A DNA stretch of 64,000 nt from an uncultured Candidatus Micrarchaeota archaeon (GCA_963762345.1 CAVXKI010000002.1:370-64369); one strand, 5' to 3'. Positions 6,746 to 31,213 are shown, numbered from the stretch's first letter. Numbers and translations are program-made. The notes: generated from the sequence alone by a model not told the origin.

Positions 6746-6785
6746 CTATTTACCTCCTTTCCTTTATCCATTGGTTTTAAAATGT

Positions 6786-7127: not shown

Positions 7128-7139
7128 TTAAAACCTCCT

Positions 7140-7216
7140 TCAATTAAAGGAATAATACCGGCAAGCTAGTCATTATATTGTTTTCCTCTTTCTCTTTCAT
7201 AACATCACAACATCAA
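7140..7216. other. breakpoint between Firmicutes-like and archaeal DNA
   Basis: The last bacterial-style gene (SD-led, AT-rich) starts at 7127. The first archaeal-style ORF ends at 7217. Composition, start signals and gene taxonomy all change within this 77-nt gap. Confidence 0.6.
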
Positions 7217-7895
7217 TCATTCGAAATCCACAGTCGCATTGAAGAGCCTTCCTGTCTCCGCTATTATCTTCTGCTCGTCTATGCTCAGTATATTCCTTAT
7301 CGTAAGGTCGTCAACGCCAAGTCTCCTCAGGACATTGCTTATCTTGTCCCTGTCGAGGTCCGCCTTTTCAAGAAGGCCTGCAAACGTTATCACGTTTACG
7401 TGCCTGTGCGCCTTCTCCATGTTGTAAGAAGGGTCCATGTTTTTCTCGCTCACTCCGAATGCTAGCGAGTATCCTCTTCAGCTCCTGCCTGCTTATCACA
7501 AATGTGTCGAGTTTTGGCATTTCCGATGTCATCATGTCTTCGATATTATTCTCGTTATCAGCAGATCGTCGAGGCTTATGCTCTTTAGGAACGATACGAT
7601 ATTCGTGTTCGGCACTCCGCTTGCCTTCAGCTCCTGCACGAAGTCTATCATCTTTATGTTCCTGCCGCCTGTGTCCATTCTTGCGAAGAGCGCCTCTATG
7701 TTCTCAGTGCTATATGTTGAACTCTATGAACTTGTTCTTCAGTTCTTCCTTCTCGAACTGGTAGTCCTTCTGTATTATTCCAGCGGAAAGCTCGCCTGCG
7801 TGAGTATGTCAGACAAGGTCTATCGTGTACACGTAGAGCGGCTCCTCTCCGTGTATCCTTTCGAGCACAAAGGTCTGCGGGAACCTGATGCGCTG
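7217..7895 (-). pseudogene. tandem helical-repeat region (separate small gene or C-terminal extension of the ATPase), several frame breaks
   Basis: Stitching minus-strand frames gives RIRFPQTFVLERIHGEEPLYVYTIDLV(TGA)HTHAGELSAGIIQKDYQFEKEELKNKFIEFNI / STENIEALFARMDTGGRNIKMIDFVQELKASGVPNTNIVSFLKSISLDDLLITRII / ...SYNMEKAHRHVNVITFAGLLEKADLDRDKISNVLRRLGVDDLTIRNIL...ATVDFE. Two ~50-aa repeats align with each other. Confidence 0.45.
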
Positions 7896-9102
7896 TCTGG
7901 AAGGCCATCTCCACCGCTGCCTGGCCAACTCCGAAGTTGCTTATCTCTGTCCTTATGAAGTTGGAGAAGTTGAGCGACCCCTGCAGGTAGTTGAGGAACT
8001 TCTCGAATTTTATTCTCAGTATGAAGCTGGTGCCGACGTTCGAGAAGATCGCCTCGTTTATGTCGGTCGGGTTCTGCGATGCGACTATCAGGCCGAACTG
8101 GTACTTCCTTCCCTCCCTCACTATTGTTATGGCGTCGCTTTTCTCATCGCTCGCCACCTTCCACGCCTCGTCAAGCACTACCAGCGCCTTGAGCCCCTTC
8201 GTCTCGCTGAATCCTTCTGCCCTCATCTTTTCCTTCAGCGTCTGCAATATGAAAAGCGCCGCAAGGGTCCTGAACTTCTCATCGGGAAGCGACGAAAGGT
8301 CTATGTCAACCAGACCGGAGTCTATCAGTTTTCCGAGGTCGAGCGTGCTCTTCCTTGCGAAATAGTCCTCGCCCTCTCTCGCAAATTGCCTAAGCCTGTA
8401 TATCGCGTTCTCGAGCTCCGCTGGATATTCGTATGTGCCCTCCTGCAGCTTCTCCTCCAGCAGCGCTATGACGTTCTTGAGGGTCGGCGCGTCCTTGCCC
8501 ATCGGCGGCTTCTCCGCGACATAGAACCCTGCGTTGGTGTACGACTGCTCTATCGCCTCTTCCGTGAGCCTCTTTTGTTCTGGATATGTGCCTATGTCAG
8601 TGAGTATGTCCAGCGAGCTCATGATCTGCTTGACCCTGTCGAGCGGCTTCATCCCCGCAAGGTCCATTATGTTCAGATAGTCGCCCTTCGAAAATGCGAC
8701 GACAACGCCTCCTGTCTGCTTTGTCCATGCCTTGTACTCCCCGGCCCAGTCTATTATTATCGCATTCGTGTTCCAGATGTAGCTCGCCCTTATCAGCAGC
8801 GTCTTCACGAAGTAGCTTTTACCGGCTCCGGTTATTCCAACAACTGAAATGTGCGGGTTTGTAAGGTTGGAGAAAGTCCAGCTGAACGGTATCTTGAATA
8901 TTTTTGTAGTGCCTATGTAGATGGACTGCAACGGGTCGTTTATCAGTATCTCTGCCGGCGGCTCCGGAGGCCTCGAGAGGAACGACCTCCTTGCTATCTG
9001 GCTGCTCATTATGTGCTGCAGTTTCAACATTGACATTGTTTTCACTTTATTTGTTTTCTGTACTTTATATATTCTCATCTCTGCGTATCGAAATTCCGGC
9101 AT
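7696..9102 (-). CDS. VirB4/HerA-FtsK superfamily (DUF87-type) P-loop ATPase, motor domain only
   Basis: Walker A GITGAGKS (8815-8838), Walker B LVVLDEAW (8161-8184), REGRKYQFGLIVASQNPTDI. The true start is probably MSMLKLQ at 9036. After about 7893 the ORF-track frame turns to junk and the real frame shifts (see 7217-7895). Confidence 0.75.
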   Translation of the reverse strand: MPEFRYAEMRIYKVQKTNKVKTMSMLKLQHIMSSQIARRSFLSRPPEPPAEILINDPLQSIYIGTTKIFKIPFSWTFSNLTNPHISVVGITGAGKSYFVKTLLIRASYIWNTNAIIIDWAGEYKAWTKQTGGVVVAFSKGDYLNIMDLAGMKPLDRVKQIMSSLDILTDIGTYPEQKRLTEEAIEQSYTNAGFYVAEKPPMGKDAPTLKNVIALLEEKLQEGTYEYPAELENAIYRLRQFAREGEDYFARKSTLDLGKLIDSGLVDIDLSSLPDEKFRTLAALFILQTLKEKMRAEGFSETKGLKALVVLDEAWKVASDEKSDAITIVREGRKYQFGLIVASQNPTDINEAIFSNVGTSFILRIKFEKFLNYLQGSLNFSNFIRTEISNFGVGQAAVEMAFQTAHQVPADLCARKDTRRGAALRVHDRPCLTYSRRRAFRWNNTEGLPVREGRTEEQVHRVQHIALRT

Positions 9103-9906
9103 ATCCTGATACTCGTAGGCAGCGCGAAGCTGTACTTGAACAAAATGTAAAGCTCCCTTCCGACGACCCTGAGAAGCTGCAGGTCGAGCGAGCTGGCAGC
9201 TATCTGCAGCTGCTTTATCTGCGCTGACAGTGCGTCGAGCGCCGCCTTCTCGCTCACTCCAACTGCCGTTGTCTCCAGGTACATGAGGGATGCTATCGGC
9301 TTTTCGCCCTGCGATATGCTGTCTATCTGCGTCTGTATGACGTTCATCTTCCTTTGCATGTCGGCCACTATAACATCAGTGGTATTCTTGCTGCTCAGCG
9401 CCTTTGACATCTGAAATTCCTGGTATGACCTCTGGCCTTCGAGTTCGTCCCTGACCGTCTGTATGTCCCTGCCCTACCGTAATTGCATGGAACTTGAACG
9501 AGAATGGGACGCTCATCACTACTCTCTCCCATATGTCAACAGATTGCACCTGCTTCATCTCCTGTCCCTCCTCTTCGCGCTCCGCCTTGAACACGAACGA
9601 GAACAGGTTCCCGGTTATGTATCCAGTTGCATAGTAGAGCCCGTTCACGTTTTTCACTATTGCCTCCTGGCTCTTTGTTATCTTGTAGTCCTTGTACGGC
9701 CTGAATGTTATGCCGAGTGTGCTCGTTATCAGCGGGAAGAGGAGATAATCGGCGAAGTTCATGACGAGTATGTATGCAAGCAGCAGCGCGACGAGTATGA
9801 CCACAAGATATGTGTAGATGCCGCCGCCGAACGAGCCCAGGTTTGCTATGACGAGTACTGGGACAACGGCGCTGAATACCAGATAGACTATCTCTTCCTC
9901 GTCCAT
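9075..9906 (-). pseudogene. 2-TM membrane protein with cytoplasmic domain (one frameshift near 9455-9470)
   Basis: ORFs 9376-9906 and 9075-9410 join as ...FKFHAITVGQ-DIQTVRDELEGQRSYQEFQMSKALSS... when one base is removed. The N-terminus has two TM helices. It overlaps the ATPase start. Confidence 0.6.
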
Positions 9907-10739
9907 TATATGACCTCTTCTCTTATCGACTTCGTTATCTGCTCCGTTGCAGTGGAATATGGTATCAGGTATTCGGGCTCGACAAACCTGAGTATCGCGT
10001 TTCCTGTTATGATGCTCGGTGTCACGCCGAATGTCGCCGCTATTCCGGACATTGCCTCCCGAGATCTTTGCTGCACTCCTGTTATCGCCTGGAATTCCGT
10101 CGAGCCAGTTGCAGAGAGCGATGCGTAGCTCACCAATTCAAGCGACACGACCTTGCTGACGTTGTCAAGCGTGTGGTGCCACATGCTGGACTTGCCCCTT
10201 GTCCTGCTGATTTCCTGGTCTGTTGCATTCTTCTGCAACAGGCCTGCTTCCTCGAGCTCTGCGGCGCTTGCCGTGCTTCTCAGCGTGTTTATGTAGTCGT
10301 CCTTGTTCATTATGTGGAGCTGGGTTGTGAGCCTCATCGGCGCTTCGCTCGAGCTCACAATGCGCGAGAGCTGGTTCGTGAATGTAAGCTTCTCTTCATC
10401 GGTCATCTCTGTGCCAGACCTGTATACGGGAATCTTTATGAAGACGGTTGCGATGAAGTCCTCTCCTTCCTTGTGTATTATCGAATCTGCTGTAGATGAT
10501 AGCCAGTATGCGTCCTCTGTGTTCAGCACCAGGTCGCGCTTCCTTTGCTTGAGTATGGGCCCGAGCAGGTAGGAATAGAATCTTGTTGAAAAGGCGCACG
10601 CGTCGAAGAATAGCACTGCCAGGAGTATCAGTATCTTGTAGACCGGCGCCAGGAAATTCGGCGATATCGAGATTATCGTGATTAGCAGCACTATCGATAT
10701 GCCGAGGAATCCAAGAAATATGAATATGCGATTATCCAT
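9906..10739 (-). CDS. 2-TM membrane protein with cytoplasmic domain, same architecture as 9075-9906
   Basis: 277 aa with two N-terminal TM helices, then a soluble domain. Stop/start overlaps the next gene at 9906. Confidence 0.6.
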   Translation of the reverse strand: MDNRIFIFLGFLGISIVLLITIISISPNFLAPVYKILILLAVLFFDACAFSTRFYSYLLGPILKQRKRDLVLNTEDAYWLSSTADSIIHKEGEDFIATVFIKIPVYRSGTEMTDEEKLTFTNQLSRIVSSSEAPMRLTTQLHIMNKDDYINTLRSTASAAELEEAGLLQKNATDQEISRTRGKSSMWHHTLDNVSKVVSLELVSYASLSATGSTEFQAITGVQQRSREAMSGIAATFGVTPSIITGNAILRFVEPEYLIPYSTATEQITKSIREEVI

Positions 10740-10783
10740 TAAGCTCAGCTTTTATTGGAGATAAATATGGGATAAAACCTTTT

Positions 10784-10801
10784 AAGCTGTTTGCACAGCT
10801 T
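10784..10801 (-). promoter_or_regulatory. intergenic hairpin between the membrane-protein block and the ATPase block
   Basis: AAGCTGT-ttgc-ACAGCTT perfect 7-bp stem in the only sizeable gap (10740-10835) of this part of the array. ATATTTAT lies downstream on the minus strand. Confidence 0.3.
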
Positions 10802-10835
10802 GATTGACCTGTTTGCTTTGCACTTGTCTGCGACG

Positions 10836-13243: not shown

Positions 13244-13253
13244 CTAGATCATT

Positions 13254-14388
13254 TCATATCAATTTTCTAAGCGTGTGCTGCGAACTGAGGCTCGGCGAGC
13301 CCAGCAGGTCCCCTACCGCCTCCATGAAATCGAATGATAATATCAGCGACAGCAGGAAAGCGACCACAATGTAAAACATCTGGCCTACGACCGTGCCTAT
13401 GAGTTCCTCGATCACGTTGAGCCCGATGAGGTTTGACTGCGGCACCCAGAAGTTTGAACTTGGAGAGACTGAGCCCAGCAGCGACTGTGTAGAGTAGGAG
13501 GAGAACTGTATGGACGTGAGGCTCACCTGCCCCAGCAGCAGGTACAGCATCAGCGGGAAGAGCACGTAGAACGCGATGAAGAATCCGAGGAATGCGCCGC
13601 CTGCCGCCCTGCTGAACGGGAGAGTACGGAACACGATCCCGAGATACAGGAACAGTGGCGCTATCTTGAAGAAGATGGCGAGTATAGCTGCGCCTGCCAA
13701 CGGTATGACAAACATGAAGTAAAGTATGTTCATAAGGTCGAATATAGGTATCAGCACGAAACCGTATCCACGGTACGGTTGCACTAAGAATCCGTAGTTG
13801 TTGTCTTTTGCGCTCAACTGTAAGCTCGATACAAATGACACCTCATCGCTTACAACATACATGGACAGTATGTCGTTTATCACCGTTATGCTGGCGCCTC
13901 CGAGGTTTCCGCAGTCCGTAGTGAATATGCTAGGCGACAGCGTGCCGGGGCTGATCGCAAGATAGTTGCTAGACGTCGGCAGCGAGCCTACCGCGAGGAA
14001 TGTGCCGAGGAATATCAGCACGATCAGCCCGGTGAGCGCGACCTCGCCGATCTCGGTCCTTCCCAAAAGAGACGAGCCTGCCCACCTTGAACGCGGATCC
14101 TATCAGGTAACATAACGCAGCTATGTTCAGCATGACGAGCAGCGCAAGCAATGATATGAATATTACGTTGTTGGCGCCGACAACGGCCGGGCTTGTGCCG
14201 GACCCGCTCAGCGGGATGGAGCCGGAGAAAAGGCTGGAACAGAAATCGCCGGCGGTATACGCTGGCGCTGAGTACTGCGCTCCCGCGACGGTTGTGACGG
14301 CGAGAAGCGCGATAAGCCCTAGCGCTGCTAGCTTGAGCGAACGCGGCACGGTTTTTTGCTTGCTAGTTTTCATTTTCATAATCGCCAC
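13254..14388 (-). pseudogene. polytopic membrane protein, paralog 3 (one frameshift near 14066-14072)
   Basis: ORFs 13969-14388 and 13254-14066 join as ...IGSAFKVGRLVS-LLGRTEIGEVALTGLIV... across a T4/A4 run. Family motif GIVFRTLPFSRAAGGAFLGFFIAFYVLFP. Confidence 0.6.
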
Positions 14389-16034: not shown

Positions 16035-16039
16035 TCACA

Positions 16040-17353: not shown

Positions 17354-17364
17354 TCATCATCACG

Positions 17365-18651: not shown

Positions 18652-18709
18652 ACTTTCTATTGCTTTAAGAAGGTATTTATATTATTCTGAGGTTTGCCTC
18701 TCGGTATCT

Positions 18710-19441
18710 TCATCTCTTGAGAAGTCCGAACCTTCCCATGTACGATTGGCTCTGCAGCACGACAAGGAACGGCATTATGAACAGGGAATTGAACACAAGT
18801 ATCAGGTATCTTGAGAGTATGGTGCCTCCTATTGCTATGAAAAGATAGTCGAAAACGCTGAGCAGCACCAGCGCAACCACAAACCACAATATCACGAAGT
18901 CGAATCTCTTGAAGAAGAAGGAGGCGCTCTGCCTCATTGCGCGGTATATGCCCTTCTCATCGATTACTATTGAAGCGGGAGCATAGAAGAAGAACGGAAG
19001 TATCACAAGGGAGACTATGGCGCTTATGGACTCGGTGATGCCAAGCATGTACATCGCGACATCGAATAGCACCACTATCGCTGCGTAGAGGAGAAGGACT
19101 AAGAACACGTTTGCGGTGTACTTCTCAAGCCCGTCCATGACCTCTTTCCTTATCCTTGTCTGCGTCCTGCTGTGCTTCACTATCACGTTTATGGCAACCA
19201 TCGCAAAGCTCAGGAACAGCAGCGATAGGAGTATGGAGAATATTATTACCGCTGCGGTGAACGGAGTCAGGTTGATGAGGATGCTTGACAGCCTGAGGAA
19301 TATCGCGCCGATATCGTTGAAAGTTGGAAAGGAAGCGAATATGGGTATGAGGAATGCGATTATGAAGGATATGGAGAATACGAGTATCATTGGAAGGTGC
19401 GTTGTGTAGATCTCCATCGAGTACTTAAGCGTGTTCTTCAT
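18710..19441 (-). CDS. ~6-TM integral membrane protein, unknown function
   Basis: 243 aa, very hydrophobic. First gene after the pilin terminator. TTTATATT lies about 35 nt upstream of its ATG. Confidence 0.5.
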   Translation of the reverse strand: MKNTLKYSMEIYTTHLPMILVFSISFIIAFLIPIFASFPTFNDIGAIFLRLSSILINLTPFTAAVIIFSILLSLLFLSFAMVAINVIVKHSRTQTRIRKEVMDGLEKYTANVFLVLLLYAAIVVLFDVAMYMLGITESISAIVSLVILPFFFYAPASIVIDEKGIYRAMRQSASFFFKRFDFVILWFVVALVLLSVFDYLFIAIGGTILSRYLILVFNSLFIMPFLVVLQSQSYMGRFGLLKR

Positions 19442-19494
19442 AAAACCACAGATAAGATGCTTTAGATGGTAAAGAATATAAAGCGTGCACTACG

Positions 19495-19555
19495 CCGATG
19501 AAAGAAGAAAAAGCAGAAAATAAAAGATTAAAAGGTGCAAAGCCTAGGCTTTGCA
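19495..19555 (-). terminator. strong terminator after the small pilin-like gene
   Basis: Perfect 9-bp hairpin TGCAAAGCC-ta-GGCTTTGCA (19536-19555), followed on the minus strand by a T-rich tract CCTTTTAATCTTTTATTTTCTGCTTTTTCTTCTTTC. Confidence 0.6.
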
Positions 19556-19583
19556 TCATGCCTCGCCGCAGAGCGTTGTGCTT

Positions 19584-19976
19584 TTAGCCGCACGAAGCCG
19601 CTGCGTTTGCTGTTACTCCGGAGACGCTGTTGCCTGTTATCACAGTCAGTATGAATGGCGCTATTACCGCAATTATTATGCCAATCACACCGCCGAGCAC
19701 CATACCCATGCCGTAACCCTGCATAGTGCCCTTGGTCTGTCCGGGCATTATGTGCGAGCCAGCATAGAGAGCGCCGCCTAATATCATCAGCATTAAGCCG
19801 ATTATGAATATGGCTGCGACCACGGAGCTGTATACGCTGTATATTGCACAGATCACATTGCTCGCCTGTGCCGAGGCTGTCGTCATAAACACGCTTGTCA
19901 GCGCTAGCAACATGAACAATACCCTAAACATATTGTTCGAGTTCAGCGCCAATAGCTTGTACATTATGTTTCCCAT
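19584..19976 (-). CDS. small VirB2/TrbC-like two-helix hairpin protein (candidate major pilin)
   Basis: Probable start MGNIMYK (19976) or later. Sec signal peptide ending ASAQA, then NVICAIYSVYSSVVAAIFIIGLMLMILGGALYAGSHIMPGQTKGTMQGYGMGMVLGGVIGIIIAVIAPFIL...AAASCG: TM, short basic loop, TM. Confidence 0.6.
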   Translation of the reverse strand: MGNIMYKLLALNSNNMFRVLFMLLALTSVFMTTASAQASNVICAIYSVYSSVVAAIFIIGLMLMILGGALYAGSHIMPGQTKGTMQGYGMGMVLGGVIGIIIAVIAPFILTVITGNSVSGVTANAAASCG

Positions 19977-20011
19977 ATTGGTACACCTTATATCTATATG
20001 ATATCTCGTAG

Positions 20012-20028
20012 ATATATTTAAATACCTA
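20012..20028 (-). promoter_or_regulatory. TATA box / promoter of the small pilin-like gene
   Basis: The minus strand reads GGTATTTAAATATATC about 45 nt upstream of ATG 19976, in the 20049-20067-flanked intergenic region. Confidence 0.45.
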
Positions 20029-20067
20029 TCTTTATGACGCTGCTGCACATGTTTGTCGTCTGCGAAT

Positions 20068-20514
20068 TCACTTCTTCGAGTAGAATTCGTAGGCGATTGC
20101 GGCGCCGACTATAGCCAGCATGCCCATCTGCACCCATGTGGTTATCGCAACGCTCAGGATCAGCGCGCCGACCCCTGCGGCGGATCCTCCTCCTGACACG
20201 TATGATATGAAGCTCTGCGAGTATGCTCCGAGAGCATAGCTCAGCACGACGTTCACGAAGCCGACTATAAGCGTGAGCATAAGAGCGGCTATCATGCTGA
20301 CCCAGAGGTAATCGAATGCCTTGGCAGACCTTCTTCCGACCCAGATGCCGAAGAGTATTGCGAGGAATAGCGTGTTGGTGCCCAGCATTATCTGCGTAGA
20401 TATGCTGAGATATGAAGTGAACCCTGCAACGAAGGCGATCACCTCGAACACGAGCCATACTATCAGCGGATACTTTATTATGTCAAGGTAGCTTTTTTTC
20501 ACCATAGAATCCAA
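20068..20514 (-). CDS. 4-TM small membrane protein, unknown function
   Basis: 148 aa, hydrophobic, with a Gly/Ala-rich loop SGGGSAAGVGA. Lies between the giant hairpin proteins and the small pilin gene. Confidence 0.5.
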   Translation of the reverse strand: MDSMVKKSYLDIIKYPLIVWLVFEVIAFVAGFTSYLSISTQIMLGTNTLFLAILFGIWVGRRSAKAFDYLWVSMIAALMLTLIVGFVNVVLSYALGAYSQSFISYVSGGGSAAGVGALILSVAITTWVQMGMLAIVGAAIAYEFYSKK

Positions 20515-20556
20515 CCTTGAGTATAAAGCATTGCATGTTTAAAAGGTTTGCCCCGC

Positions 20557-23355
20557 TCAAACCGAGCACGCGGCGAGCAGGTTCGTGAGCTGGCCATAGA
20601 CGGTAATCGATACGACTACATAAGAGAACGCAGCGAGTCCCGCGCCTACAAGTCCGCCTAGAATCATGCCCATCGCATAACCCTGTATTGTGCCCCTCGC
20701 CTGGGCAGGGAGCAGCTGCCCGAGTTCGTAGAGAACCGCGCCAAGCAGCAGCAGGGTGATTGACAGTACGGCGAGTATCGCCTCTATCTGCGCGAAGATC
20801 GTACAGAGGCTGGATGTGAGCGGCGCCGCGTTCGCTGTTCCGCCGTTCGATGATCCTATATTCGACTGCGATGGATTTATGGTAAGCGCCCCCGCGCCCA
20901 CATAGCCATTGTCGTACATAAGGCAATAGAGATATGTGCCTGGAGGGAAGTCGGCGGGGCTTTGTGAGCCTATGCTGCATTCGACTCCTTGTGGCTGTTG
21001 CGACTCGCTTTGCGTGCCGCTCTGTGTGCCTGCGCAGTCAACGTAGCCCGGATGGGTCGGATCCTCGGTGCATCCTGGAGGAACGTATGGCTGGCAGTTG
21101 TCTGTCGATACTCCTGCACCGTAGCCGCACGTCGACCCTGGGAGCGCTGGTGTCTGCGACGTGCATGAGTATGGCGCTGTTGTGCTCGGCAGATAGCCCA
21201 TATAACAGCCGTTCGCATCGCCCGGCGAATCCGTACACGGACCATATGCAGGGGACAGAGTGGCGGTGCATGCCTGCTGCGCGTTTATGAGATTTGTGTT
21301 AGTATATGGAATCACATACAGCCTCAGGGGCACGCTCGAGAGGCCATATGCATTTGCAGTGATGGTCGCGCTTGATCCCTGTTGTATTGTGTATGGATTG
21401 ATGTTGACCGAGCCCAAAGCAGTGAGCGGTGCTCCAGTTGAGCCGATGAATGTTGTCGGCGCCTGCTCCGTGCTCTGGCCGGTGGTGCACTGGCCTGCCC
21501 CATTGCACGTTATGCCAGCGCTCGCGAAGAATATTGCAAGGCTGGCTCCATCACCAGCAGTCTGGGTGGGCGGAGGGGACGCATAGTAGCCGAGCGTCGG
21601 GTTCACGCCGTAGTCGTATCCTTGTGACGGGTTTGATGGATACTGCAGCTGCAGCGAATCGGGGCCGAAGCCGCCAGAGCCGCTTGGAGTGAAATAATCA
21701 TACGCGCAGACCAGGTAACTGCCGGCATGACCCTGCGGCAGGTAGGTCTGCGGATCTATAGATGCGGTGTCGGATGGCCCGCTGCTTCCGGAGAATGTTG
21801 TTATTAGGCACGGGAGCGAGGTGCCGGCGTTAGAGCAGTAGTCATCCTGTGCCTGCAACACCAATGGAGGCACGCACCCGTTTGAATCGGTACCGCTCGC
21901 AAGCTCGAAGTAGCAGTTGTATCCGCCGTTCAGGCTCCCGCCGCACAGCGATGTTGATGACGGAGCGGACTGGCCTATGCTTGTGAAGTAGTTCACGAAC
22001 GGTGATTTCGGCACTTCGTCCGGATTTAGCGTAACCTGCAGCGGCGCGGTGGTCGAAAGCGGGAATGTTGATGGACCGAATGTGAGGAACAGCCCATAGC
22101 TCGGACCCCACATCGCGTTTGCCGCAACAACGATGTTGCCGACAACAGGGTTAGCCTGGCCTTGTGGAACCAACAGCCCGCTGCCGGACGGGCTGGGCGC
22201 AAGGATCTGGTAGCTGCCGCATATATTATATGTGCCCTGGGGCGTGTATATCGTGTTCGTGAAATAGCTGAGCTGGCAGTACGGAGTCGCAATGTTGTTG
22301 TTCATGTCAAAGCTGTTGAACACCTGCGCTGCATCGGTGATGCAAGGAGGCCACGGGCGTATTGTTCCATACGCATTTATCTGCACCTGATATTGAATTC
22401 CATTGATGTTCCTGTACTGCAGCCCGGTTGTCAGGAAGGTAGTATCCTCAGAGCAGAAGACATTGATGAAGCCGTCGTTTTCCTGTGCTGGCGATGATGC
22501 TAGTGTATCCGGTACTACGCACGGCGTTCCCTGCGCAGACATCTGAACGAAGCTCTCCGTGTTGCACGATACTCCTGAATAATTGAAATCTATGTCTGAG
22601 GATGCGCCAGGAAGCAGGACTGTTGGGCCGATTGTAAGTTTCTCTGATGTGCCGGATACGAGAGAAAGCGTGGCGCCTCCGGCATATTCGGGGATAGTGG
22701 GAGGGGGCGAGGAATAGCCGGCTCCTGAACACAGGGAGGGTCCCCCGTATGTGTTGCACTGCGGCGGATTTGTGCCTGCGCAGAAAAGGCTCGACCCGTA
22801 GGTGCAGTCCGGGACACCTGTCTGGCAAGCGGGCTGAACATTATCGTATATGCAGGACTCAAGCGAGGGATCAAGGACTCCTATGAAATAGTAGTTTACA
22901 TTTGGCAGGAGGCCCTGCGGCGTCTGCACCTGCAGCGTTATGGATGGATTTGGGGACCAGACGGCATTGGCGAGCACGCACGCATCGCTTATTGTTAGAC
23001 CTGCGTTGCCGCACGTCGGCAATCCATAAACTGTGAGAGCGGCGATGGTCCAATAATCATTCGGATTGTTGATGACTATGGAGTTTGTAGATGGCAGGAA
23101 TATCAGGAATGCGTTGTCATTATCGGCAAAAACTCCGCATCCGCTGCTCTCACCATTGCACGTAGACCCTGGTGGTGTTGTTGCAAATGTCACTGTAGCC
23201 TGCCCACCCACAGCTATCGTAGGTGGACTGAAGGTCACTCCGCCAACAGCAAGATCTGACGGGGGCGGTTGCACCGCGCCCGCGCTGTGCGCGAAAAGGA
23301 GCAGCAGCAGTAGGAACAGCGGCGCGAAGTGTTTTATTTTTTTATTCAATGTCAT
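20557..23355 (-). CDS. giant secreted Cys-rich protein with C-terminal VirB2-like hairpin module (932 aa)
   Basis: Signal peptide (LLLLLFAHSAGA). Ectodomain of ~830 aa rich in C, G, T, S, P, with recurring G-[TS]-Y-x-x-C-x-Y motifs. C-terminus LCTIFAQIEAILAVLSITLLLLGAVLYELGQLLPAQARGTIQGYAMGMILGGLVG...LLAACSV. Confidence 0.65.
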   Translation of the reverse strand: MTLNKKIKHFAPLFLLLLLLFAHSAGAVQPPPSDLAVGGVTFSPPTIAVGGQATVTFATTPPGSTCNGESSGCGVFADNDNAFLIFLPSTNSIVINNPNDYWTIAALTVYGLPTCGNAGLTISDACVLANAVWSPNPSITLQVQTPQGLLPNVNYYFIGVLDPSLESCIYDNVQPACQTGVPDCTYGSSLFCAGTNPPQCNTYGGPSLCSGAGYSSPPPTIPEYAGGATLSLVSGTSEKLTIGPTVLLPGASSDIDFNYSGVSCNTESFVQMSAQGTPCVVPDTLASSPAQENDGFINVFCSEDTTFLTTGLQYRNINGIQYQVQINAYGTIRPWPPCITDAAQVFNSFDMNNNIATPYCQLSYFTNTIYTPQGTYNICGSYQILAPSPSGSGLLVPQGQANPVVGNIVVAANAMWGPSYGLFLTFGPSTFPLSTTAPLQVTLNPDEVPKSPFVNYFTSIGQSAPSSTSLCGGSLNGGYNCYFELASGTDSNGCVPPLVLQAQDDYCSNAGTSLPCLITTFSGSSGPSDTASIDPQTYLPQGHAGSYLVCAYDYFTPSGSGGFGPDSLQLQYPSNPSQGYDYGVNPTLGYYASPPPTQTAGDGASLAIFFASAGITCNGAGQCTTGQSTEQAPTTFIGSTGAPLTALGSVNINPYTIQQGSSATITANAYGLSSVPLRLYVIPYTNTNLINAQQACTATLSPAYGPCTDSPGDANGCYMGYLPSTTAPYSCTSQTPALPGSTCGYGAGVSTDNCQPYVPPGCTEDPTHPGYVDCAGTQSGTQSESQQPQGVECSIGSQSPADFPPGTYLYCLMYDNGYVGAGALTINPSQSNIGSSNGGTANAAPLTSSLCTIFAQIEAILAVLSITLLLLGAVLYELGQLLPAQARGTIQGYAMGMILGGLVGAGLAAFSYVVVSITVYGQLTNLLAACSV

Positions 23356-23409
23356 GGCAACCTTTTCCTTTTTTTTATTTTTATTTTCATACTTAAATAT
23401 TTATTGCGC

Positions 23410-24909
23410 TCATGGCGTACATCCGTTCAGCGCCAATATGTTTCCTACAGTTGTGTTTGCCGCGAACGACAGCGTGTACACTGACACGCCCACTATCACC
23501 AAGCTTATTATGCCGGCAAGTACCAGCCCCATAGCGTAACCCTGTATCGTACCTCTCATCTGACCGGGTATTGAGTAGCTGACCGCGTATGTCGCGGCGC
23601 CTATCAGTATGAGGACCAGGGCCAGGATCGCGAGCAGCGCTTGAACTTGGTAGTAAGCTGAGCAGAGTATTGTCTGTATGATGGCTGCGGATGCGGATGG
23701 GCCTGGCTGGATGTAATTGATATTGCCGCATGTCAGGTCTCCGGGGAGGCACTGTACCTCGAAGTCCTGCTGCGCGAAGAAAACCGACCATGGATCTGAT
23801 GATGATGAAAGGCCGGGCTGGTTGCCCTCGTAGCCGCATATGCTGTATGTGCTCGCGGCCAGATTTGCCGTCGATATCTGCACTGGCGCGATGTTCCCGT
23901 CTGTGGGTGCGGTGTTCGGCCCTCCCGAATATGCTATTACACATGGAAGATCTGCGCTGGCGGGCGCATAACTGGGACATAATGGAACCTTGTCTGTGCT
24001 TGCTACGGTGCCGGGTGCGTCCTGTGATTGCGTGGTCGGAACGCCGCCGTATTGGCAATACACGCCTGCACCTGGTTCTGCAATTTCAAGATATGTTGGG
24101 TAGGCGCCATCGCCGGACAGAGATATCTGCATCTCGTCTCCCTTTATGAAATTTGTCTGCGGGGCTGTGATACCTTGCATTACTTGATCGACTGTCAATG
24201 TCAGCGGAGCAAGCGTAGTGAGCGAGAAAGATCCAGACGCGGTGTTTGGGAGCACGGACTGGTCGATGAGGATATTCTGCGGCAGCGACTGATCAGGCTG
24301 TATCTGGAACCACTGAAAGCCGGAGCATGCTGCTGGAGGGTTGACACTCCTCCACGGGTTTGACGTGCTCTCCGGCGCTATTCCTATATAGGCGCAGAGC
24401 TGGTAGTAACCTGGTGCGAGGTCGGCGCCGTAATAGGGGTTAACTATGCAGGTGCCATCGTGATTGCCGTCCAGATAATTATACGGCGTGCTGCCACTGC
24501 ATGCCCACGCCTGATCGTATGCATAACCCGAAGGTGGGCTCGACTGCAGGTCTGCCCATTGGCTTCCGACAGAAGACGCATCTGGGCACGACAGGCCGGC
24601 CGGTTGGGCAACGATGTAGACCGGGCACTGCGGCGCTGGATAATTGGATTGGTCGCATGCATCATACGTGTCGGGGACGCCCGGAATCTCTGTCGGGAAG
24701 CTATATGCCACGCCGAATCCAAGCTGCGTGTACGCACCGGGCTCGATCTGCGTCGCGCCGGTGATGCCGAATCCTGACTGTGAAACGGAAACTGTGGGAC
24801 AGCCACCCGTGAAGAGGGCGGATGTCTTTGCCGAAAGCGATGACAGTAAAATGACAAGCAGCATCGTAGCGAAAAGATAATTCCTGATTTTACTCTTATT
24901 GTTCATCAT
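23410..24909 (-). CDS. secreted Cys-rich protein with C-terminal VirB2-like hairpin module (499 aa)
   Basis: Signal peptide, then motifs APGYYQLCAYIG and AASTYSICGYEG. C-terminus LCSAYYQVQALLAILALVLILIGAATYAVSYSIPGQMRGTIQGYAMGLVLAGII...ALNGCTP. Confidence 0.65.
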   Translation of the reverse strand: MMNNKSKIRNYLFATMLLVILLSSLSAKTSALFTGGCPTVSVSQSGFGITGATQIEPGAYTQLGFGVAYSFPTEIPGVPDTYDACDQSNYPAPQCPVYIVAQPAGLSCPDASSVGSQWADLQSSPPSGYAYDQAWACSGSTPYNYLDGNHDGTCIVNPYYGADLAPGYYQLCAYIGIAPESTSNPWRSVNPPAACSGFQWFQIQPDQSLPQNILIDQSVLPNTASGSFSLTTLAPLTLTVDQVMQGITAPQTNFIKGDEMQISLSGDGAYPTYLEIAEPGAGVYCQYGGVPTTQSQDAPGTVASTDKVPLCPSYAPASADLPCVIAYSGGPNTAPTDGNIAPVQISTANLAASTYSICGYEGNQPGLSSSSDPWSVFFAQQDFEVQCLPGDLTCGNINYIQPGPSASAAIIQTILCSAYYQVQALLAILALVLILIGAATYAVSYSIPGQMRGTIQGYAMGLVLAGIISLVIVGVSVYTLSFAANTTVGNILALNGCTP

Positions 24910-24915
24910 ATCATC

Positions 24916-26940
24916 TCATGAAGTGAATGCGGTGCAGTAGCTCAATACCTGTGCGATGGAAGTGTCAGCAGATATGGAAAGCGCCCATACAGACAGCGCT
25001 GCTATCACCATTGCTATTATCCCTACAAGTATAAATCCAAATGCATAGCTCTGGGCTTGCCCCCTTACCGCAGCTGGCAGTATGCTAGATCCGGCGTAGA
25101 GAGCGGCACCGAGCAGCAGTAGTATCATCGCGAATATCAACAATATTATGTCGAGCTCGCTGTATATCGTGCATACGGTCGAGCCGAATGCGCCGAGGCT
25201 TTGCGCGCCCTGGCCGTATGGCGTGACCACGCCGAGAGTGGTGCATATGCCGCATGGGCACGTGACACCTGGGGGCACCGTGCATGTCGGGGGCACATAT
25301 GCCTGCGCTGACGACGACGTTGTGCACAAGCCGTTCACGCATGATACTGTTGCGGTGGCAAAGAACGGGGCAAATTCCGTGATTGTATATGGATTTGTCA
25401 CCCAGTCCAATGGGGTATAATCATACATGCATAAAAGATAATCGCCGTTCGTCAGATACTGCGTGCTCAGCAGTTGCGAGTATGTGAGATTGTCTCTGTT
25501 TTGATAATTGTTTGGATATGAATCAAGGATGCACGGCGCAGAGCCCTGTGTCAATGGAAGCGTGCATGTGGAGATCGTATGCAGCACTGCTGTGATGCCG
25601 ACCGCAGTGTAGTACTCCGGCGCTTCGCACGTGGCAGATGGCTCCTGACCCGCATACTCCACGTAGCAGTTGTCGCCCGTGTCGCCGGTGCCGCATATGT
25701 TTGGTGCAACAGTGCTGGATGTCCTGTAATCTGAGGTTGCCTGCGTTGATATTGTTGTGGTGTTGCCCAGCAGGAATGTCGTCGGCGTGATCAACAGCCC
25801 GTAGCCGCTCGAGAATGTATTGACGGTGATAACTGCACTGCCTATTGGCGAGCCTGCGGATTGCTCCTGGGCCTGCGCAGAATAATAAATGCAATAGTTG
25901 TACGTGCCCGAAGAAACCCTGCCTGGGAATGCTGAGTACATCGTCCATGAAGCCGACGTTGGACTTGCTGCTGTGCAGGTCGGCGGAGATTCTTCGACGT
26001 ATCCTGTTTCTATGGAGCAGGAGCTGGTGATGATGTATGGGCATGGCGGCTCTGTAGGCGATGCAGTGGAGCTGTCGTAGTAGGAGGGCGGGCAGGGAGG
26101 CGGCGTGGACGAACCGGACGGCGCAGCCATTATGTTGACGAAGACTCCGTCGTAGAACATGCATTCTGTCGTCGTGCTTGACAAGCCAGTGACCGTGACA
26201 GACACGTTAGATGCTGCGCCAGGTATTATTTCCGCAGGTTGGGGTATGACAATTGCGATCGTTGATGCGTATGATACTATCAGATTTGCAGTGCCGGCCC
26301 AGATTGGGTCGATGGTGCCGACAGAGGGCGCCACCGTTTGCGGGTTTAGAAGCCCAGTATCCTCATAGTAGGCTTGGAATGTGTATGTGCCTGCAGGCAG
26401 CGTGCTGGGCAGGGGACCGCTCGCCGATACCGTACCGGTTGACTGCTCCTGCGCTGCCCCTTGTGATGTGGTTATGCTTGCGGCTATGCATGCCGCAGTG
26501 GTATACGGATTGGAGAGCGAGGAGCATTGCGGCAGACTGTTGAGGTTGCCGTTGCCGTTGTAGTTTGTTGTTGTTCCGGGCGGGACATATATCACAACTA
26601 GGGCGCACCCGGTTGGAGGTGGACCGGAGTTGGCGGTGCATTGCACGTTCAACGTGTTGACTGTGAAACCCACGCCTCCTGTTGTGCCTGTAGCAATCGG
26701 ATTGCCGGGCGAGAACGAGATAGTGCCGCAGAAGTCCTCCGGATAGAAGACGCCGGCGCTATAGTCTGACACGCATGGCAGCGAGCCGATAGGCGCAGTG
26801 CAGCCTATTGTCAATGTGGCGGGATCCGTGCACGCAGGCAGCGTGGCGGCATCGGTCTTAAGCAGGAAAAGCGCACAGAATAAAATCGCAGCGAGTAATA
26901 TTGCACCGCGGTTTATCGAGAACATGCAAAACCAATCCAT
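24916..26940 (-). CDS. secreted Cys-rich protein with C-terminal VirB2-like hairpin module (674 aa)
   Basis: Likely start MFSINRG at 26925, followed by a signal peptide. Motifs SSGTYNYCIYYSA and TNGDYLLCMYDY. C-terminus VCTIYSELDIILLIFAMILLLLGAALYAGSSILPAAVRGQAQSYAFGFILVGII...LSYCTAFTS. Confidence 0.65.
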   Translation of the reverse strand: MDWFCMFSINRGAILLAAILFCALFLLKTDAATLPACTDPATLTIGCTAPIGSLPCVSDYSAGVFYPEDFCGTISFSPGNPIATGTTGGVGFTVNTLNVQCTANSGPPPTGCALVVIYVPPGTTTNYNGNGNLNSLPQCSSLSNPYTTAACIAASITTSQGAAQEQSTGTVSASGPLPSTLPAGTYTFQAYYEDTGLLNPQTVAPSVGTIDPIWAGTANLIVSYASTIAIVIPQPAEIIPGAASNVSVTVTGLSSTTTECMFYDGVFVNIMAAPSGSSTPPPCPPSYYDSSTASPTEPPCPYIITSSCSIETGYVEESPPTCTAASPTSASWTMYSAFPGRVSSGTYNYCIYYSAQAQEQSAGSPIGSAVITVNTFSSGYGLLITPTTFLLGNTTTISTQATSDYRTSSTVAPNICGTGDTGDNCYVEYAGQEPSATCEAPEYYTAVGITAVLHTISTCTLPLTQGSAPCILDSYPNNYQNRDNLTYSQLLSTQYLTNGDYLLCMYDYTPLDWVTNPYTITEFAPFFATATVSCVNGLCTTSSSAQAYVPPTCTVPPGVTCPCGICTTLGVVTPYGQGAQSLGAFGSTVCTIYSELDIILLIFAMILLLLGAALYAGSSILPAAVRGQAQSYAFGFILVGIIAMVIAALSVWALSISADTSIAQVLSYCTAFTS

Positions 26941-26998
26941 TTTAGTTGATGAATTGTATTTGCCTAAGCCTCTTTATATATTTATTGATTTTCCAGCG

Positions 26999-29278
26999 TC
27001 AGACTGCGGCGCCGGAGCACACCATGCTGATTATGTTTGCGGGCGAGTTGTACGCTATCGACAATACGTAAGGAGCGACCATCGCGATTATCGCTCCTGC
27101 AACTCCGCCGAACACGAGTCCCATTGCGTAGCCCTGCACCACGCCTCTTGACTGTCCTGGGAGTATCTGCGCCCCGGCGTAGAGCGCCCCTCCGAGTATC
27201 ATGAGAGTCAGCGCGAGTAGGAAGACGATCGTGTTTACAATATAGTATACGCTGCATATCGCTTGAAGTGCAGGAGTGATTGAGCCGCTGCCGCTTGTGC
27301 CGCCTGTGCTGCCGCTGCCAGGATTGAGTGTGAGCTGCGCGCTCTGCATTGCCCAGCAGCCCGTGGGCCCGACGCTTGGGTTGTTGTTGCAGGTAACGCC
27401 AGTGGGACCGGTTGCACCAACCAGCGAGTACGAGCATATTGTGTCTGTTCCGCCAGAGGTCGATGTTGTGACAGGCAATGTCACAGACTCGTATACAGAG
27501 GAGCTGGAGCCGACCTCACAGGAGATTCCAGTGGGAGTAGGTATTCCCGGGTTTGTATACGTAGATGCGCAGGAAGTCCCTGACGATGCTTCACCATAGT
27601 ATGGAATGGCCTGGCATGTGCCGCCCGGCCCAATATCGTCTATCTCTGTGTAGGTGCCGCAGTCGGTCGGGTCGTTGCACTGCGCTGTGAACGTGACCTG
27701 GTTCTGGTCTGTACTCGGATTGAGGTTCTGCGTGGCTGGATTGTATGATATGTCAAGCGACTCTGGGTTGCCGCCTGTTGCGATTATTGTGAGTGCAGCC
27801 TGTGTGGTCGCCGGCGCCCATGCCTGTTGGCCTGTGTTGATGTCGCACACGCCGTAGCACGCGTATCCGCACACATTGACGGTTGTGGTTTGGCTTGCGA
27901 CAACGTCCTGTGAATAGTATATTCCCTCGCTCGCACCGGAGGGATAAAGACTGGTTGACCACGAAGTCCATGATGAAGTTGGATTCAGGACGCATCCGAC
28001 GCTTGAGATGGCGAATAAGTCAGTGCTTCCGCAGTATGGCTGCCAGAGGCCGTTGCCCTGCCCTCCGCCCGTTATGGCAAGGCCGCTGCCCGAGGGGCAT
28101 GACGTTCCTTGGGGCTCTATCAATATCGTGCCCCAGTTGCATTGGCTGGACGATGGAGAGGTAAGAGATGTACCATAAGCTGAGCCGTGGCAGGCCACCA
28201 AGAATGATGCAGCCGAACCCGAATCTACAGTGGCAGATGAGCCCCACCCCTGAAGGGTAGGCGTGCCACCAGGAATAACACCCACGTAGACTGGCGGCGG
28301 AGACGATGAAGTAGGGGTTGATATTGTGAGAGTCCCCTGGCTTGCATCGGTCCACGTGCTCGAGCCCTGCGCCTGGAAGTATCCGCATACGTCGAGATTG
28401 GTGCCAGAGCTGGAAGTTGTGTATGCTGTGCCTGTCGCAGACATCGTATAGCATTCAGGCCCCAGGCCGCAGCTGCCGAAGCTACCGAGATTGCCTGACG
28501 AGCCGGCAAAGTTGTTCAGCTCGCAGTATCCGGATAGTTGTGACAGGTCGCTCGGGCAAGTGCTTGTCACGCTGCTTGGCGTGAAGGTGGCGCCGGTCGG
28601 ACAACCGGAGCTTGAGAGCATCATGTCGCCGGTATAGCATGAGCTGTTGGGGCCAACGCAGATCATCCCCGCAGTGAACGTGTTGCTAGGTCCTGACACA
28701 ACACTTTGGCTGCCCGGAGTGACCGCGGCATACACAGATATCACTGAAAAAACCGCTGAAATGATGTTCCCGTTTGTTAAATCATTCGCATAGAATATGT
28801 AGTCTCCCAAAGCCAGGTCTGATGGCGTAGCGTAGTTGCAGGTTGTGACTCCTGAGCCTGCCTGTCCTGTACAGACATGAGTTCCCGGTGACGGATAGTC
28901 GAGGGCGCAATTGTCACCCTGGACGCAAAGCGCTTGTATAGTTGCAGAAGAGCCATACGCAACTGAGTTCACTCCTGCAGGCAGAAAAACGACTGATGGG
29001 GAGATGCCTGTGAAAGACATGGTGGTTGTGCTTGTACTGGTTGGGAATGTGGAGAAGCTGGAAGTGGAAAAGCCTCCGACGGTGGTCATGGTTATGGGAC
29101 CGATGGTGGATTCTGAAGAAGAGGAGGGTATTGAGGGGACTGTCGGGCCAATCTGACCGATCGGGCTGACGCCCATGAGCGTGCTAAGCGTTGATATGAT
29201 CATCGCGCTTAAGAATAGGAAGAGCATGGTCTTTGCATTAGCTGCGATAACCTTCGCCAGCCCCTTTTTTCTCGCCAT
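26999..29278 (-). CDS. secreted Cys-rich protein with C-terminal VirB2-like hairpin module (759 aa), first gene of the array
   Basis: N-terminal signal/anchor and a T/S/G-rich ectodomain. C-terminus ICSVYYIVNTIVFLLALTLMILGGALYAGAQILPGQSRGVVQGYAMGLVFGGVAG...SMVCSGAAV. Confidence 0.65.
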   Translation of the reverse strand: MARKKGLAKVIAANAKTMLFLFLSAMIISTLSTLMGVSPIGQIGPTVPSIPSSSSESTIGPITMTTVGGFSTSSFSTFPTSTSTTTMSFTGISPSVVFLPAGVNSVAYGSSATIQALCVQGDNCALDYPSPGTHVCTGQAGSGVTTCNYATPSDLALGDYIFYANDLTNGNIISAVFSVISVYAAVTPGSQSVVSGPSNTFTAGMICVGPNSSCYTGDMMLSSSGCPTGATFTPSSVTSTCPSDLSQLSGYCELNNFAGSSGNLGSFGSCGLGPECYTMSATGTAYTTSSSGTNLDVCGYFQAQGSSTWTDASQGTLTISTPTSSSPPPVYVGVIPGGTPTLQGWGSSATVDSGSAASFLVACHGSAYGTSLTSPSSSQCNWGTILIEPQGTSCPSGSGLAITGGGQGNGLWQPYCGSTDLFAISSVGCVLNPTSSWTSWSTSLYPSGASEGIYYSQDVVASQTTTVNVCGYACYGVCDINTGQQAWAPATTQAALTIIATGGNPESLDISYNPATQNLNPSTDQNQVTFTAQCNDPTDCGTYTEIDDIGPGGTCQAIPYYGEASSGTSCASTYTNPGIPTPTGISCEVGSSSSVYESVTLPVTTSTSGGTDTICSYSLVGATGPTGVTCNNNPSVGPTGCWAMQSAQLTLNPGSGSTGGTSGSGSITPALQAICSVYYIVNTIVFLLALTLMILGGALYAGAQILPGQSRGVVQGYAMGLVFGGVAGAIIAMVAPYVLSIAYNSPANIISMVCSGAAV

Positions 29279-31212: not shown

Positions 31213-31213
31213 C

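Follow-up and report, generated by a model that had tools for sequence, protein, structure and literature searches.

A syntenic gene cluster of Micrarchaeota with a VirB2-like pilin candidate and a HerA/VirB4-superfamily ATPase

Introduction

Type IV secretion system (T4SS)-like systems that are encoded on the chromosome and lack a relaxase include the Ced and Ted DNA import systems (PMC9905601, PMC11868833) and the T4SS of Patescibacteria (PMC12102498). The Ted system of Thermoproteales comprises the pilin TedC together with TedA and TedB (PMC9905601), and the Ced system of Sulfolobales consists of CedA, CedA1, CedA2, CedB, CedD and CedE (PMC11868833), of which CedA1 is reported to be related to the N-terminus of CedA (PMC9905601). 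The relaxase-less T4SS of Patescibacteria is reported to be important for epibiotic growth (PMC12102498), and possible T4SS pili at the host interface have been linked to it (bioRxiv 10.64898/2026.06.21.733656). Here, we describe a gene cluster on the minus strand, at positions 7,217 to 29,278, of a 64,000-nucleotide (nt) stretch of DNA from an uncultured Candidatus Micrarchaeota archaeon (GCA_963762345.1 CAVXKI010000002.1:370-64369), which was analysed as a whole and is referred to below as the window.

An earlier note, made from the sequence of the window alone, had read this region as an expanded conjugative-pilus apparatus built from a VirB4-type ATPase, six paralogous membrane proteins and five VirB2-like hairpin proteins. 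A search of the full-text literature on Micrarchaeota or DPANN archaea in combination with VirB4, VirB2, TrbC, type IV secretion or pilin, with subscription-only papers outside its scope, returned no description of the cluster. With middling confidence, we regard the region as the Micrarchaeota version of a chromosomal, vertically inherited T4SS-like pilus or conduit in the style of Ced and Ted.

Results

Between 7.2 and 29.3 kb, the minus strand carries 17 tightly packed, co-directional genes in an unbroken run (Table 1), which was seen both in the open reading frame (ORF) listing and in a greedy gene call and shows that the array described in the earlier note is real. The junctions between the genes range from -4 to +142 nt, and the topologies of the products are borne out by their hydropathy profiles. 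We refer to the genes as PIL (a small pilin-like protein), M243 and P1 to P6 (multispanning membrane proteins), T1 and T2 (proteins with two transmembrane [TM] segments), ATPase, D1, S148 (a small membrane protein) and G1 to G4 (giant secreted proteins). The source organism is a Micrarchaeon and thus a DPANN archaeon, in agreement with the small-genome archaeal host suspected previously. Its ATPase has 1228 relatives in a collection of 5.8 billion proteins; the top 120 share 78-100% identity with it, most of the named ones being called Micrarchaeota or Micrarchaeia, and the few named distant relatives come from Micrarchaeota and one Thermoproteota. The flanks of the window encode seryl-tRNA synthetase, an S-layer protein and glycosylation genes, and the window belongs to a DPANN chromosome.

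The cluster is conserved as a unit. Scanning one genome per GTDB species, we found the P5 family in 152 species representatives, almost all of them named Micrarchaeota; 80 of these loci were kept, and all their ORFs were labelled by family searches (single loci are designated below by L and a number). A few of the kept loci are labelled Marsarchaeota, Acidiferrales or Methanothrix, probably because of mis-binning. In approximately 60 species representatives, the genes follow the nearly constant order PIL-M243-P1-P2-P3-P4-P5-P6-T1-T2-ATPase-D1-D2-D3-(D4)-D5, and the cluster is also present in the complete genome of the cultured Ca. Micrarchaeum sp. A_DKE (NZ_CP060530.1, approximately 806-827 kb). 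This shared order shows that the cluster is chromosomal, old and vertically inherited and not a mobile element. In addition, P1 to P6 have one-to-one orthologues at the same positions in other genomes, and the sixfold set is therefore ancient and fixed across the phylum; the proposed amplification of the membrane component does not hold as a recent expansion.

The components differ in their degree of conservation, with mean pairwise identities across species of 71% for the ATPase, 52% for M243 and T2, 46% for T1 and 33-39% for P1 to P6. M243, whose gene always adjoins the pilin gene, is the best conserved membrane component. Compared with its orthologue in L006, the ATPase is 95% identical at the protein level and 74% identical at the DNA level, with saturated synonymous sites, and is therefore under strong purifying selection. 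The outer flanks vary between genomes and synteny is not kept beyond the cluster, which in several genomes lies among housekeeping genes (tRNA synthetases, eRF1, topoisomerase VI subunit B).

The pilin-like hairpin module occurs five times in the window, once as a free protein of approximately 130 amino acids (aa) and four times at the C-terminus of secreted proteins of 499-932 aa (BLASTP E values of 1e-5 to 1e-23; hidden Markov model [HMM] E values of 1e-18 to 1e-53), which corroborates the five hairpin proteins, four of them giant, of the earlier note. All 70 relatives of PIL that we found are approximately 115-220 aa long, and one of them was named VirB2 pilin by JGI. The predicted similarity to TrbC/VirB2 was also recovered at the profile level, as 34 of the 56 aligned PIL orthologues match the Pfam family TrbC/VirB2 (PF04956; best E value of 7e-7) and 25 match T4SS_pilin (PF18895). 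The PF04956 match runs along the full length of the model (positions 7-97 of 98) and is not confined to one TM segment; three orthologues score above the Pfam cutoff (29.4-29.8 vs 27.9 bits) and most of the others reach 24-26 bits. Collectively, PIL displays the signal peptide, the two hydrophobic helices and the short cytoplasmic loop of a VirB2/TrbC-type pilin, with borderline similarity to PF04956 and PF18895, and its AlphaFold2 (AF2) model is a helical hairpin (pLDDT of 80).

A further property of the family is a pair of cysteines. In 52 of 52 motif-bearing orthologues, helix 1 is immediately preceded and helix 2 is followed by a Cys, exactly two Cys are found in 53 of the 56 aligned sequences, and the same Cys-flanked hairpin recurs in all four giant fusions. 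According to the positive-inside rule, both residues are extracellular. TrbC and VirB2 pilins are cyclised head-to-tail, and a disulfide between the two cysteines, as suggested by the sequences, would tie the termini of the hairpin together in a functional parallel to these cyclised pilins.

Most species possess a single pilin gene encoding approximately 130 aa. The pilin-ectodomain fusions, which the earlier note took for a feature of the system, are present in the window but limited to a few of its close relatives (L004, L007, L009, L010, L011 and L037), where they measure 299-839 aa. Similarly, S148 was found only in the close relatives L010 and L011 and is therefore outside the universal core. 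The four fusion proteins of the window contain 16-36 Cys, 5-7% charged residues and 1-3 N-x-S/T sequons each, and their ectodomains look acid-stable, disulfide-bonded and poorly N-glycosylated. An S-layer protein encoded nearby (47060-50056, 998 aa, Pfam S_layer_C) follows the opposite stabilisation strategy, with 21 sequons and 1 cysteine. In L004 (GCA_027310085.1), positions 7942-9840 encode a 632-aa "poly-pilin" with four tandem VirB2-like hairpin modules (domain E values of 1e-27 to 1e-31).

The six polytopic proteins P1 to P6 (363-548 aa) are indeed paralogues, being mutually homologous by BLASTP, by family HMMs and by hhalign (probabilities of 52-99%, with 13 of the 15 pairs at >=86%). 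T1 and T2 are paralogues as well (hhalign probability of 96.8%), and D1, which corresponds to the ORF at 7217-7453 and is a conserved gene, aligns with residues 427-505 of the ATPase (97.1%) and constitutes a copy of its C-terminal ~80 residues. In relatives, further conserved genes, D2 to D5, lie downstream (for example, L005 11505-15580 and L088 11585-15339) and are missing from the window. D2 is a zinc ribbon with two TM segments, D3 is a 242-aa coiled-coil protein with faint matches to CdvB_HTH, D4 is approximately 47 aa long, and D5 (approximately 790 aa) has two TM segments that enclose a large extracellular domain, followed in its description by a cytoplasmic tail of approximately 215 aa.

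The ATPase carries its motifs at the positions originally given (Walker A GITGAGKS, 8815-8838; Walker B LVVLDEAW, 8161-8184; ASQNPTD, 8062-8082), but not the length of ~440 aa, as its orthologues have approximately 500 aa and the reading in the window is truncated by frameshifts. Pfam places it in the HerA-FtsK/VirB4 superfamily by matches to DUF87, AAA_10 and the TraG P-loop. NCBIfam scores were obtained with CedD (67.8 bits, E value of 7.6e-19), Mycoplasma integrative conjugative element (ICE) VirB4 (66 bits), the CD1110 VirB4-like family (64 bits), CedB (62.1 bits, E value of 4e-17) and HerA (49-52 bits), all of them roughly tenfold lower than the equivalog cutoffs (600 for CedD, 700 for CedB and 800-970 for HerA). 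Against the Protein Data Bank (PDB), the family profile scored 81 bits with the defence HerA 8wiv, 79 with HerA 8xau, 79 with the VirB4-like 4ag5 and 73 with HerA 4d2i. The VirB4-like matches (CD1110, residues 57-365; Mbov_0397, 60-349; TraC; 4ag5, 59-326) cover the whole ATPase domain in a single stretch and the HerA-family matches mainly its C-terminal part; those to DptH, DndH and mad8 are also single long stretches. Only ~60 residues precede the Walker A motif.

Several observations weigh against a T4SS-like apparatus. Concerning the pilin, the window's own PIL has no Pfam match at E <=1 and thus falls below the reporting level, so that its TrbC/VirB2 membership is borderline but consistent. 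Its model has no Foldseek match to solved conjugative, Ced or Ted pilins in the PDB and retrieves generic helical hairpins only (pore-forming toxins, DgkA, designed proteins), a result that is uninformative for a two-helix protein and does not count against the pilin reading, and the PIL family profile has no sequence match in the PDB. Furthermore, alignment of PIL with the N-terminus of P5 by hhalign yielded an E value of 0.29, and the relation between CedA1 and the CedA N-terminus was thus not reproduced here.

Concerning the membrane proteins, searches of Pfam, NCBIfam and PDB sequences revealed no detectable similarity of P1 to P6, M243 or T1/T2 to VirB6/TrbL/CedA, VirB3 or VirB8. The P5 family (63 sequences) lacks a TrbL/VirB6 match in Pfam even at E <=1 and any match among PDB sequences, and a Foldseek search of the PDB with the P5 model produced no significant neighbour, TrwI/VirB6 appearing at rank 25 (E value of 2.6, TM score of 0.20-0.25). 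A VirB6 identity of the six paralogues is therefore not supported. M243 has no relatives in Pfam, NCBIfam or the PDB, T1 and T2 have none in Pfam or the PDB, and none of eight membrane or secreted proteins scanned against NCBIfam matched a T4SS or Ced component. Concerning the ATPase, the N-terminal domain of VirB4 (CagE_TrbE_VirB) was found neither in the protein nor in its distant relatives, and the similarity of the protein to HerA-type and defence ATPases is on a par with that to VirB4, CedB and CedD. Because the scores are nearly equal and this domain is absent, the ATPase can be assigned to the HerA-FtsK/VirB4 superfamily but not to the VirB4 type in particular.

The organisation of the locus also bears on the question of whether it represents one machine. 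We surveyed the P6/T1 junction in 69 species loci with enough flanking sequence and found T1 after P6 on the same strand in 61 of them, 56 times with a gap of <=113 nt. The other 8, a further point against a single apparatus, break or invert exactly at this boundary: the ATPase module is inverted but adjacent in 4 (L052, L055, L062 and L068), D3-D5 directly follow P6 in 1, and none of these genes is present in the flank in 3. All breaks coincide with the junction between P6 and T1, and the locus therefore consists of two modules, namely module B (PIL-M243-P1 to P6) and module A (T1/T2-ATPase-D1, together with D2 to D5 in relatives). Deep-branching loci point in the same direction. L088 (ATPase identity of 55%) has the arrangement T-ATPase-D2-D3-D5 and L089 (42%) T-ATPase-D3, with no pilin, M243 or P gene within 10 kb of either ATPase, and the link between pilin and ATPase therefore rests on their conserved adjacency (61 of 69 loci). 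The oldest partners of the ATPase are thus T and D3 rather than the pilin, which is the main weakness of the argument from the triad of ATPase, pilin and membrane protein. Modules A and B may be functionally independent. In L001 (ERZ25039480 contig_63020), a DDE_Tnp_1 transposase gene (9039-9902) lies directly upstream of the ATPase gene, and T, P and pilin genes are absent from that side; here, an insertion sequence has split the cluster at the boundary between the two modules.

The chief rival explanation follows from this division, and we consider it possible though rather doubtful. It holds that two unrelated systems are neighbours, of which T-ATPase-D1 to D5 would be a housekeeping, membrane-tethered HerA/FtsK-like translocase (serving, for example, DNA handling or cell division), and PIL-M243-P1 to P6 would be a separate envelope complex in which the hairpin anchors surface proteins in the membrane, with no pilus or T4SS logic. 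The deep-branching loci and the rearrangements exactly between P6 and T1 speak for this explanation, the ATPase is as near to HerA as to the other clades and far better conserved (71%) than the P proteins (33-39%), and the faint CdvB_HTH matches of D3 agree with it. Moreover, the large ectodomains N-terminal to the hairpin resemble anchored surface proteins, and the paper on the A_DKE culture states that it is not known how the S-layer protein of this Micrarchaeon is anchored. However, the two modules adjoin each other in the same orientation with a gap of <=113 nt in 56 of the 69 species although the outer synteny is lost, and this persistence argues for a functional link. Even where the ATPase module is inverted, it still adjoins P6, and in L002, where D genes are lacking, the T-ATPase pair is still found together with the P module. 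The hairpin, in addition, matches the pilin families over their full length and not only in one TM segment.

Another explanation, which concerns the copy in the window and appears unlikely to us, is that the cluster is decaying in this genome, its frameshifts being real and its left end lost to a foreign insertion or rearrangement. By aligning intact orthologues from L005 onto the window, we mapped at least 6 frameshifts, two in the ATPase gene (7800-7890) and one each in T2 (near 9470), P4 (near 14060), P2 (near 16200-16260) and D1 (near 7460). All of them fall within the ATPase-proximal 9 kb of the cluster and not obviously in long homopolymers. As a result, the ATPase reading is spread over three frames (9036-7801, 7889-7713 and 7816-7538), and the ORFs at 13254-14066 and 13969-14388 constitute one gene, P4. 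The left side of the cluster is cut as well: relatives continue with D2-D3-D4-D5, whereas homology in the window ends at approximately 7236, and where the synteny with D2-D3-D5 of the relatives ends, the GC content falls from ~0.46-0.54 to 0.30-0.38 within 200 nt. These frameshifts, the missing D2 to D5 and the sharp GC break at 7.2 kb are consistent with decay. On the other hand, the coding sequence is otherwise undegraded, the ATPase being 83-86% identical to that of L005 both before and after the first shift, the genes from P1 to G4 are all intact, and the GC break could be a chimeric join. Furthermore, a major facilitator superfamily (MFS) transporter gene in the low-GC block (234-1710) is split too, which suggests a general assembly or sequencing error. 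The copy in the window may thus be non-functional or mis-assembled.

The low-GC block itself (positions 1-7200) has a GC content of 37%, compared with ~50% in the other 57 kb, and contains sulfur-handling genes encoding three rhodanese-domain proteins, two DsrE-like proteins, TauE and a fusion of a metallo-beta-lactamase domain with rhodanese. It represents either foreign DNA or a chimeric assembly join. Neither an RNA gene (tRNA and Rfam scans) nor an integrase was found at the 7.2-kb junction, and a check for chimerism with two proteins of the low-GC left flank gave no exact-protein record.

A HerA-type anti-phage defence system is very improbable. In its favour, the ATPase scored 70 bits against HerA of PADLOC, 64 against mad8 and 55 against DndH, in line with its PDB match to a defence HerA. 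Yet the similarity to HerA is generic, no gene for a SIR2, DUF4297 or nuclease effector was found, and none of nine partner proteins tested had a credible effector match, the sole match (D2 with Cas8b, E value of ~1e-3) being not credible. Defence islands, moreover, are unlike a locus that occurs in the majority of the Micrarchaeota species sampled (152 species representatives) and has a fixed gene order, and a set of eleven membrane proteins together with one secreted pilin-like protein is at odds with such a system. As for a HerA-NurA module, the HerA models matched only the C-terminal part of the ATPase, far below their cutoffs, and no nuclease gene was found among the conserved neighbours, so this identity was rejected. 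A viral or proviral origin was rejected too, as the pilin and ATPase profiles have no relatives in viral contigs.

Finally, an integrated conjugative element or plasmid-derived T4SS that moves its own DNA is hardly credible: although the locus combines a VirB2-like pilin with a DUF87/AAA_10 ATPase, and 239 of 504 plasmid records with distant ATPase matches are conjugative plasmids, these matches (distant DUF87, TraC or VirB4-like) are only 24-28% identical, a tblastn search of 72,556 plasmids with a pilin orthologue found no match, relatives are lacking in viral contigs, the same gene order occurs in ~60 species with housekeeping flanks in several genomes, and, as the earlier note had remarked for the window, no relaxase, type IV coupling protein, VirB11, integrase or replication gene is present in the Pfam annotation of the window or in the Pfam calls that had been precomputed for the related loci inspected.

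Table 1. Genes of the cluster in the window, listed by position
Gene	Position	Strand	Description
D1	7220..7520	-	~100-aa soluble protein; paralogue of the ATPase C-terminal ~80 residues; frameshift near 7460; identified by tblastn with the L005 orthologue and hhalign
ATPase	7538..9036	-	DUF87/AAA_10 P-loop ATPase, HerA-FtsK/VirB4 superfamily; listed ORF 7696-9102; two frameshifts; identified by Pfam, NCBIfam, PDB, PADLOC and orthologue mapping
T2	9075..9906	-	277 aa; N-terminal 2-TM hairpin and ~210-aa soluble domain; split into ORFs 9376-9906 and 9075-9410
T1	9906..10739	-	277-aa 2-TM protein with soluble domain; paralogue of T2
P6	10836..12110	-	polytopic membrane paralogue, 424 aa
P5	12107..13243	-	polytopic membrane paralogue, 378 aa; invariant extracellular Cys pair; R..F.R.FGG motif; AF2 pLDDT 84
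P4	13254..14388	-	polytopic membrane paralogue, ~363 aa in orthologues; frameshift near 14060
P3	14388..16034	-	polytopic membrane paralogue, 548 aa; large extracellular loop
P2	16040..17353	-	polytopic membrane paralogue, ~449 aa in orthologues; C-terminal frameshift near 16200-16260
P1	17365..18651	-	polytopic membrane paralogue, 428 aa
M243	18710..19441	-	243 aa, 5-6 TM
PIL	19584..19976	-	~130-aa precursor with signal peptide, TM, short basic loop, TM; TrbC/VirB2-like hairpin; Cys on either side of the hairpin
S148	20068..20514	-	148-aa 4-TM protein
G1	20557..23355	-	932 aa, secreted, low-charge, 36 Cys; C-terminal pilin hairpin module 20602-20838
G2	23410..24909	-	499 aa, secreted, Cys-rich; C-terminal pilin hairpin module 23437-23691
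G3	24916..26940	-	674 aa, secreted, Cys-rich; C-terminal pilin hairpin module 24934-25194
G4	26999..29278	-	759 aa, secreted, Ser/Thr- and Cys-rich; C-terminal pilin hairpin module 27038-27280

The giant pilin-fusion genes are adjoined, at 29334-34692, by genes for a radical SAM/SPASM enzyme, a GT2 glycosyltransferase, a PMT_2 (dolichyl-phosphate-mannose type) transferase and a carbamoyltransferase, a set that is syntenic in L004 and may serve the modification of secreted proteins. The only tRNA gene of the window, for tRNA-Leu (40298-40384, minus strand), lies within the 5' end of a listed ORF (39158-40399) whose product is Cys-rich and has 20 sequons; the true start of that gene is therefore further downstream.

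Discussion

Among the closest described systems, Ted resembles the Micrarchaeota cluster in its general layout. Both are chromosomal, lack a relaxase and a coupling protein and belong to archaea with an S-layer, and both bring together, in one neighbourhood, a VirB2-like two-helix pilin with a signal peptide, a polytopic partner and an ATPase of the HerA/VirB4 superfamily. However, P1 to P6 and M243 have no detectable sequence or fold similarity to TedA/VirB6, the ~500-aa ATPase lacks the VirB4 N-domain, and the six polytopic paralogues, the two 2-TM paralogues and D1 to D5 have no Ted counterpart. The hosts differ too, one being a DPANN symbiont and the other a free-living crenarchaeon. With Ced, the cluster has in common a minimal T4SS-like set, small 2-TM proteins and duplicated components (CedB/CedD and CedA/CedE in Ced), and its ATPase weakly matches CedD and CedB in NCBIfam. 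Nevertheless, scores of 62-68 bits against equivalog cutoffs of 600-700 show that the ATPase is not a member of these families; furthermore, the Ced pilin has no cleaved signal peptide, and no link of the Micrarchaeota cluster to UV or DNA damage is known.

The MPF-FATA T4SS of monoderms and the T4SS of Patescibacteria (PMC12102498) offer a second comparison, the latter being likewise a lineage-wide, chromosomal, relaxase-less system of an ultra-small episymbiont. The VirB2-like pilin (PF04956/PF18895) is shared, and the ATPase domain can be aligned in its entirety to VirB4 of the CD1110 and Mycoplasma type. In contrast, the Patescibacteria have a bona fide VirB4 with PrgI/VirB3, VirB6 and VirB8-like partners, none of which is detectable in the Micrarchaeota cluster, where the VirB4 N-domain is missing. 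HerA-type ATPases, both of HerA-NurA repair and of defence, have the DUF87 P-loop fold family and comparable bit scores in common with the ATPase, but no NurA or defence effector gene lies near the cluster, and the partners are membrane proteins and a secreted pilin-like protein. Lastly, the SPEARE-like giants of nanohaloarchaea (PMC10266531) also combine, in DPANN, large adhesin-like ectodomains with a T4SS-family ATPase and were proposed to act in host interaction. In these proteins, a VirB4/TraG-like ATPase domain is fused to the giant, whereas the giants of the Micrarchaeota cluster carry pilin hairpins as their fusion partners, and its ATPase is a separate, small and highly conserved protein.

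Overall, the cluster draws two of its parts from the T4SS/HerA repertoire and joins them with a dozen conserved proteins that are without known relatives. The six fixed paralogues, the pilin-ectodomain fusions and the protein with four pilins in tandem have no described counterpart among the systems compared. As regards surface structures of Micrarchaeota, thin filaments, left unassigned by the authors, were seen by cryo-electron tomography on the cultured Micrarchaeon ARM-1 (PMC11329633), and the paper on the A_DKE culture makes no mention of pili or secretion.

From the observed gene content, paralogy, conservation, synteny and pilin-family similarity, we infer filament formation, coupling of the ATPase to the pilin and a substrate, which could be combined as follows. 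The ~130-aa pilin precursor would be exported by Sec, and its signal peptide would be cut after an A-x-A site. The mature pilin would form a membrane-embedded helical hairpin, its two ends lying outside the cell and its basic loop (PGQ.KG..QGYG) in the cytoplasm, and the invariant Cys pair on the outside would clamp its N- and C-termini, mimicking the head-to-tail cyclisation of TrbC/VirB2 pilins. Extraction of pilins by VirB4 is established; here, a hexameric DUF87 ATPase, tethered to the membrane via T1/T2, would pull pilins from the bilayer into a filament. M243 and the six different P proteins, perhaps arranged as a pseudo-sixfold hetero-oligomer, could provide the platform or channel on which this filament grows, and the filament would cross the S-layer for host contact and/or the movement of macromolecules (DNA, lipid or other). 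The pilin-ectodomain fusions of the window's lineage may be minor subunits, tip subunits or adhesins anchored in the membrane.

A bolder version, which we put forward tentatively, is that the cluster encodes a phylum-specific host-interaction nanomachine. Only the disulfide-clamped, VirB2-like filament subunit and the motor would stem from the T4SS/HerA world, and the membrane core (a pseudo-sixfold P1-P6 ring, T1/T2, M243 and D1 to D5) would be a new invention. The product would be a lipid-associated pilus or conduit that passes through the S-layer and takes DNA, lipids or other macromolecules from a Thermoplasmatales host that has no cell wall; lineage-specific fusions of pilin and adhesin would determine the host specificity.

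It is still an open question by what means DPANN archaea adhere to their hosts and obtain material from them, and for Micrarchaeota no molecular machine has been assigned to these tasks. The cluster, which occurs in no fewer than 152 species representatives, is subject to strong purifying selection and is carried by the cultured strain A_DKE, is a concrete and testable candidate. If a VirB2-based pilus is indeed formed, the idea of a domesticated T4SS, as exemplified by Ced and Ted in Crenarchaeota and by the T4SS in Patescibacteria, would apply to DPANN as well, and ultra-small symbionts of the two domains would seem to have arrived convergently at the same machinery. The cluster may thus be the surface machine by which Micrarchaeota deal with their hosts.

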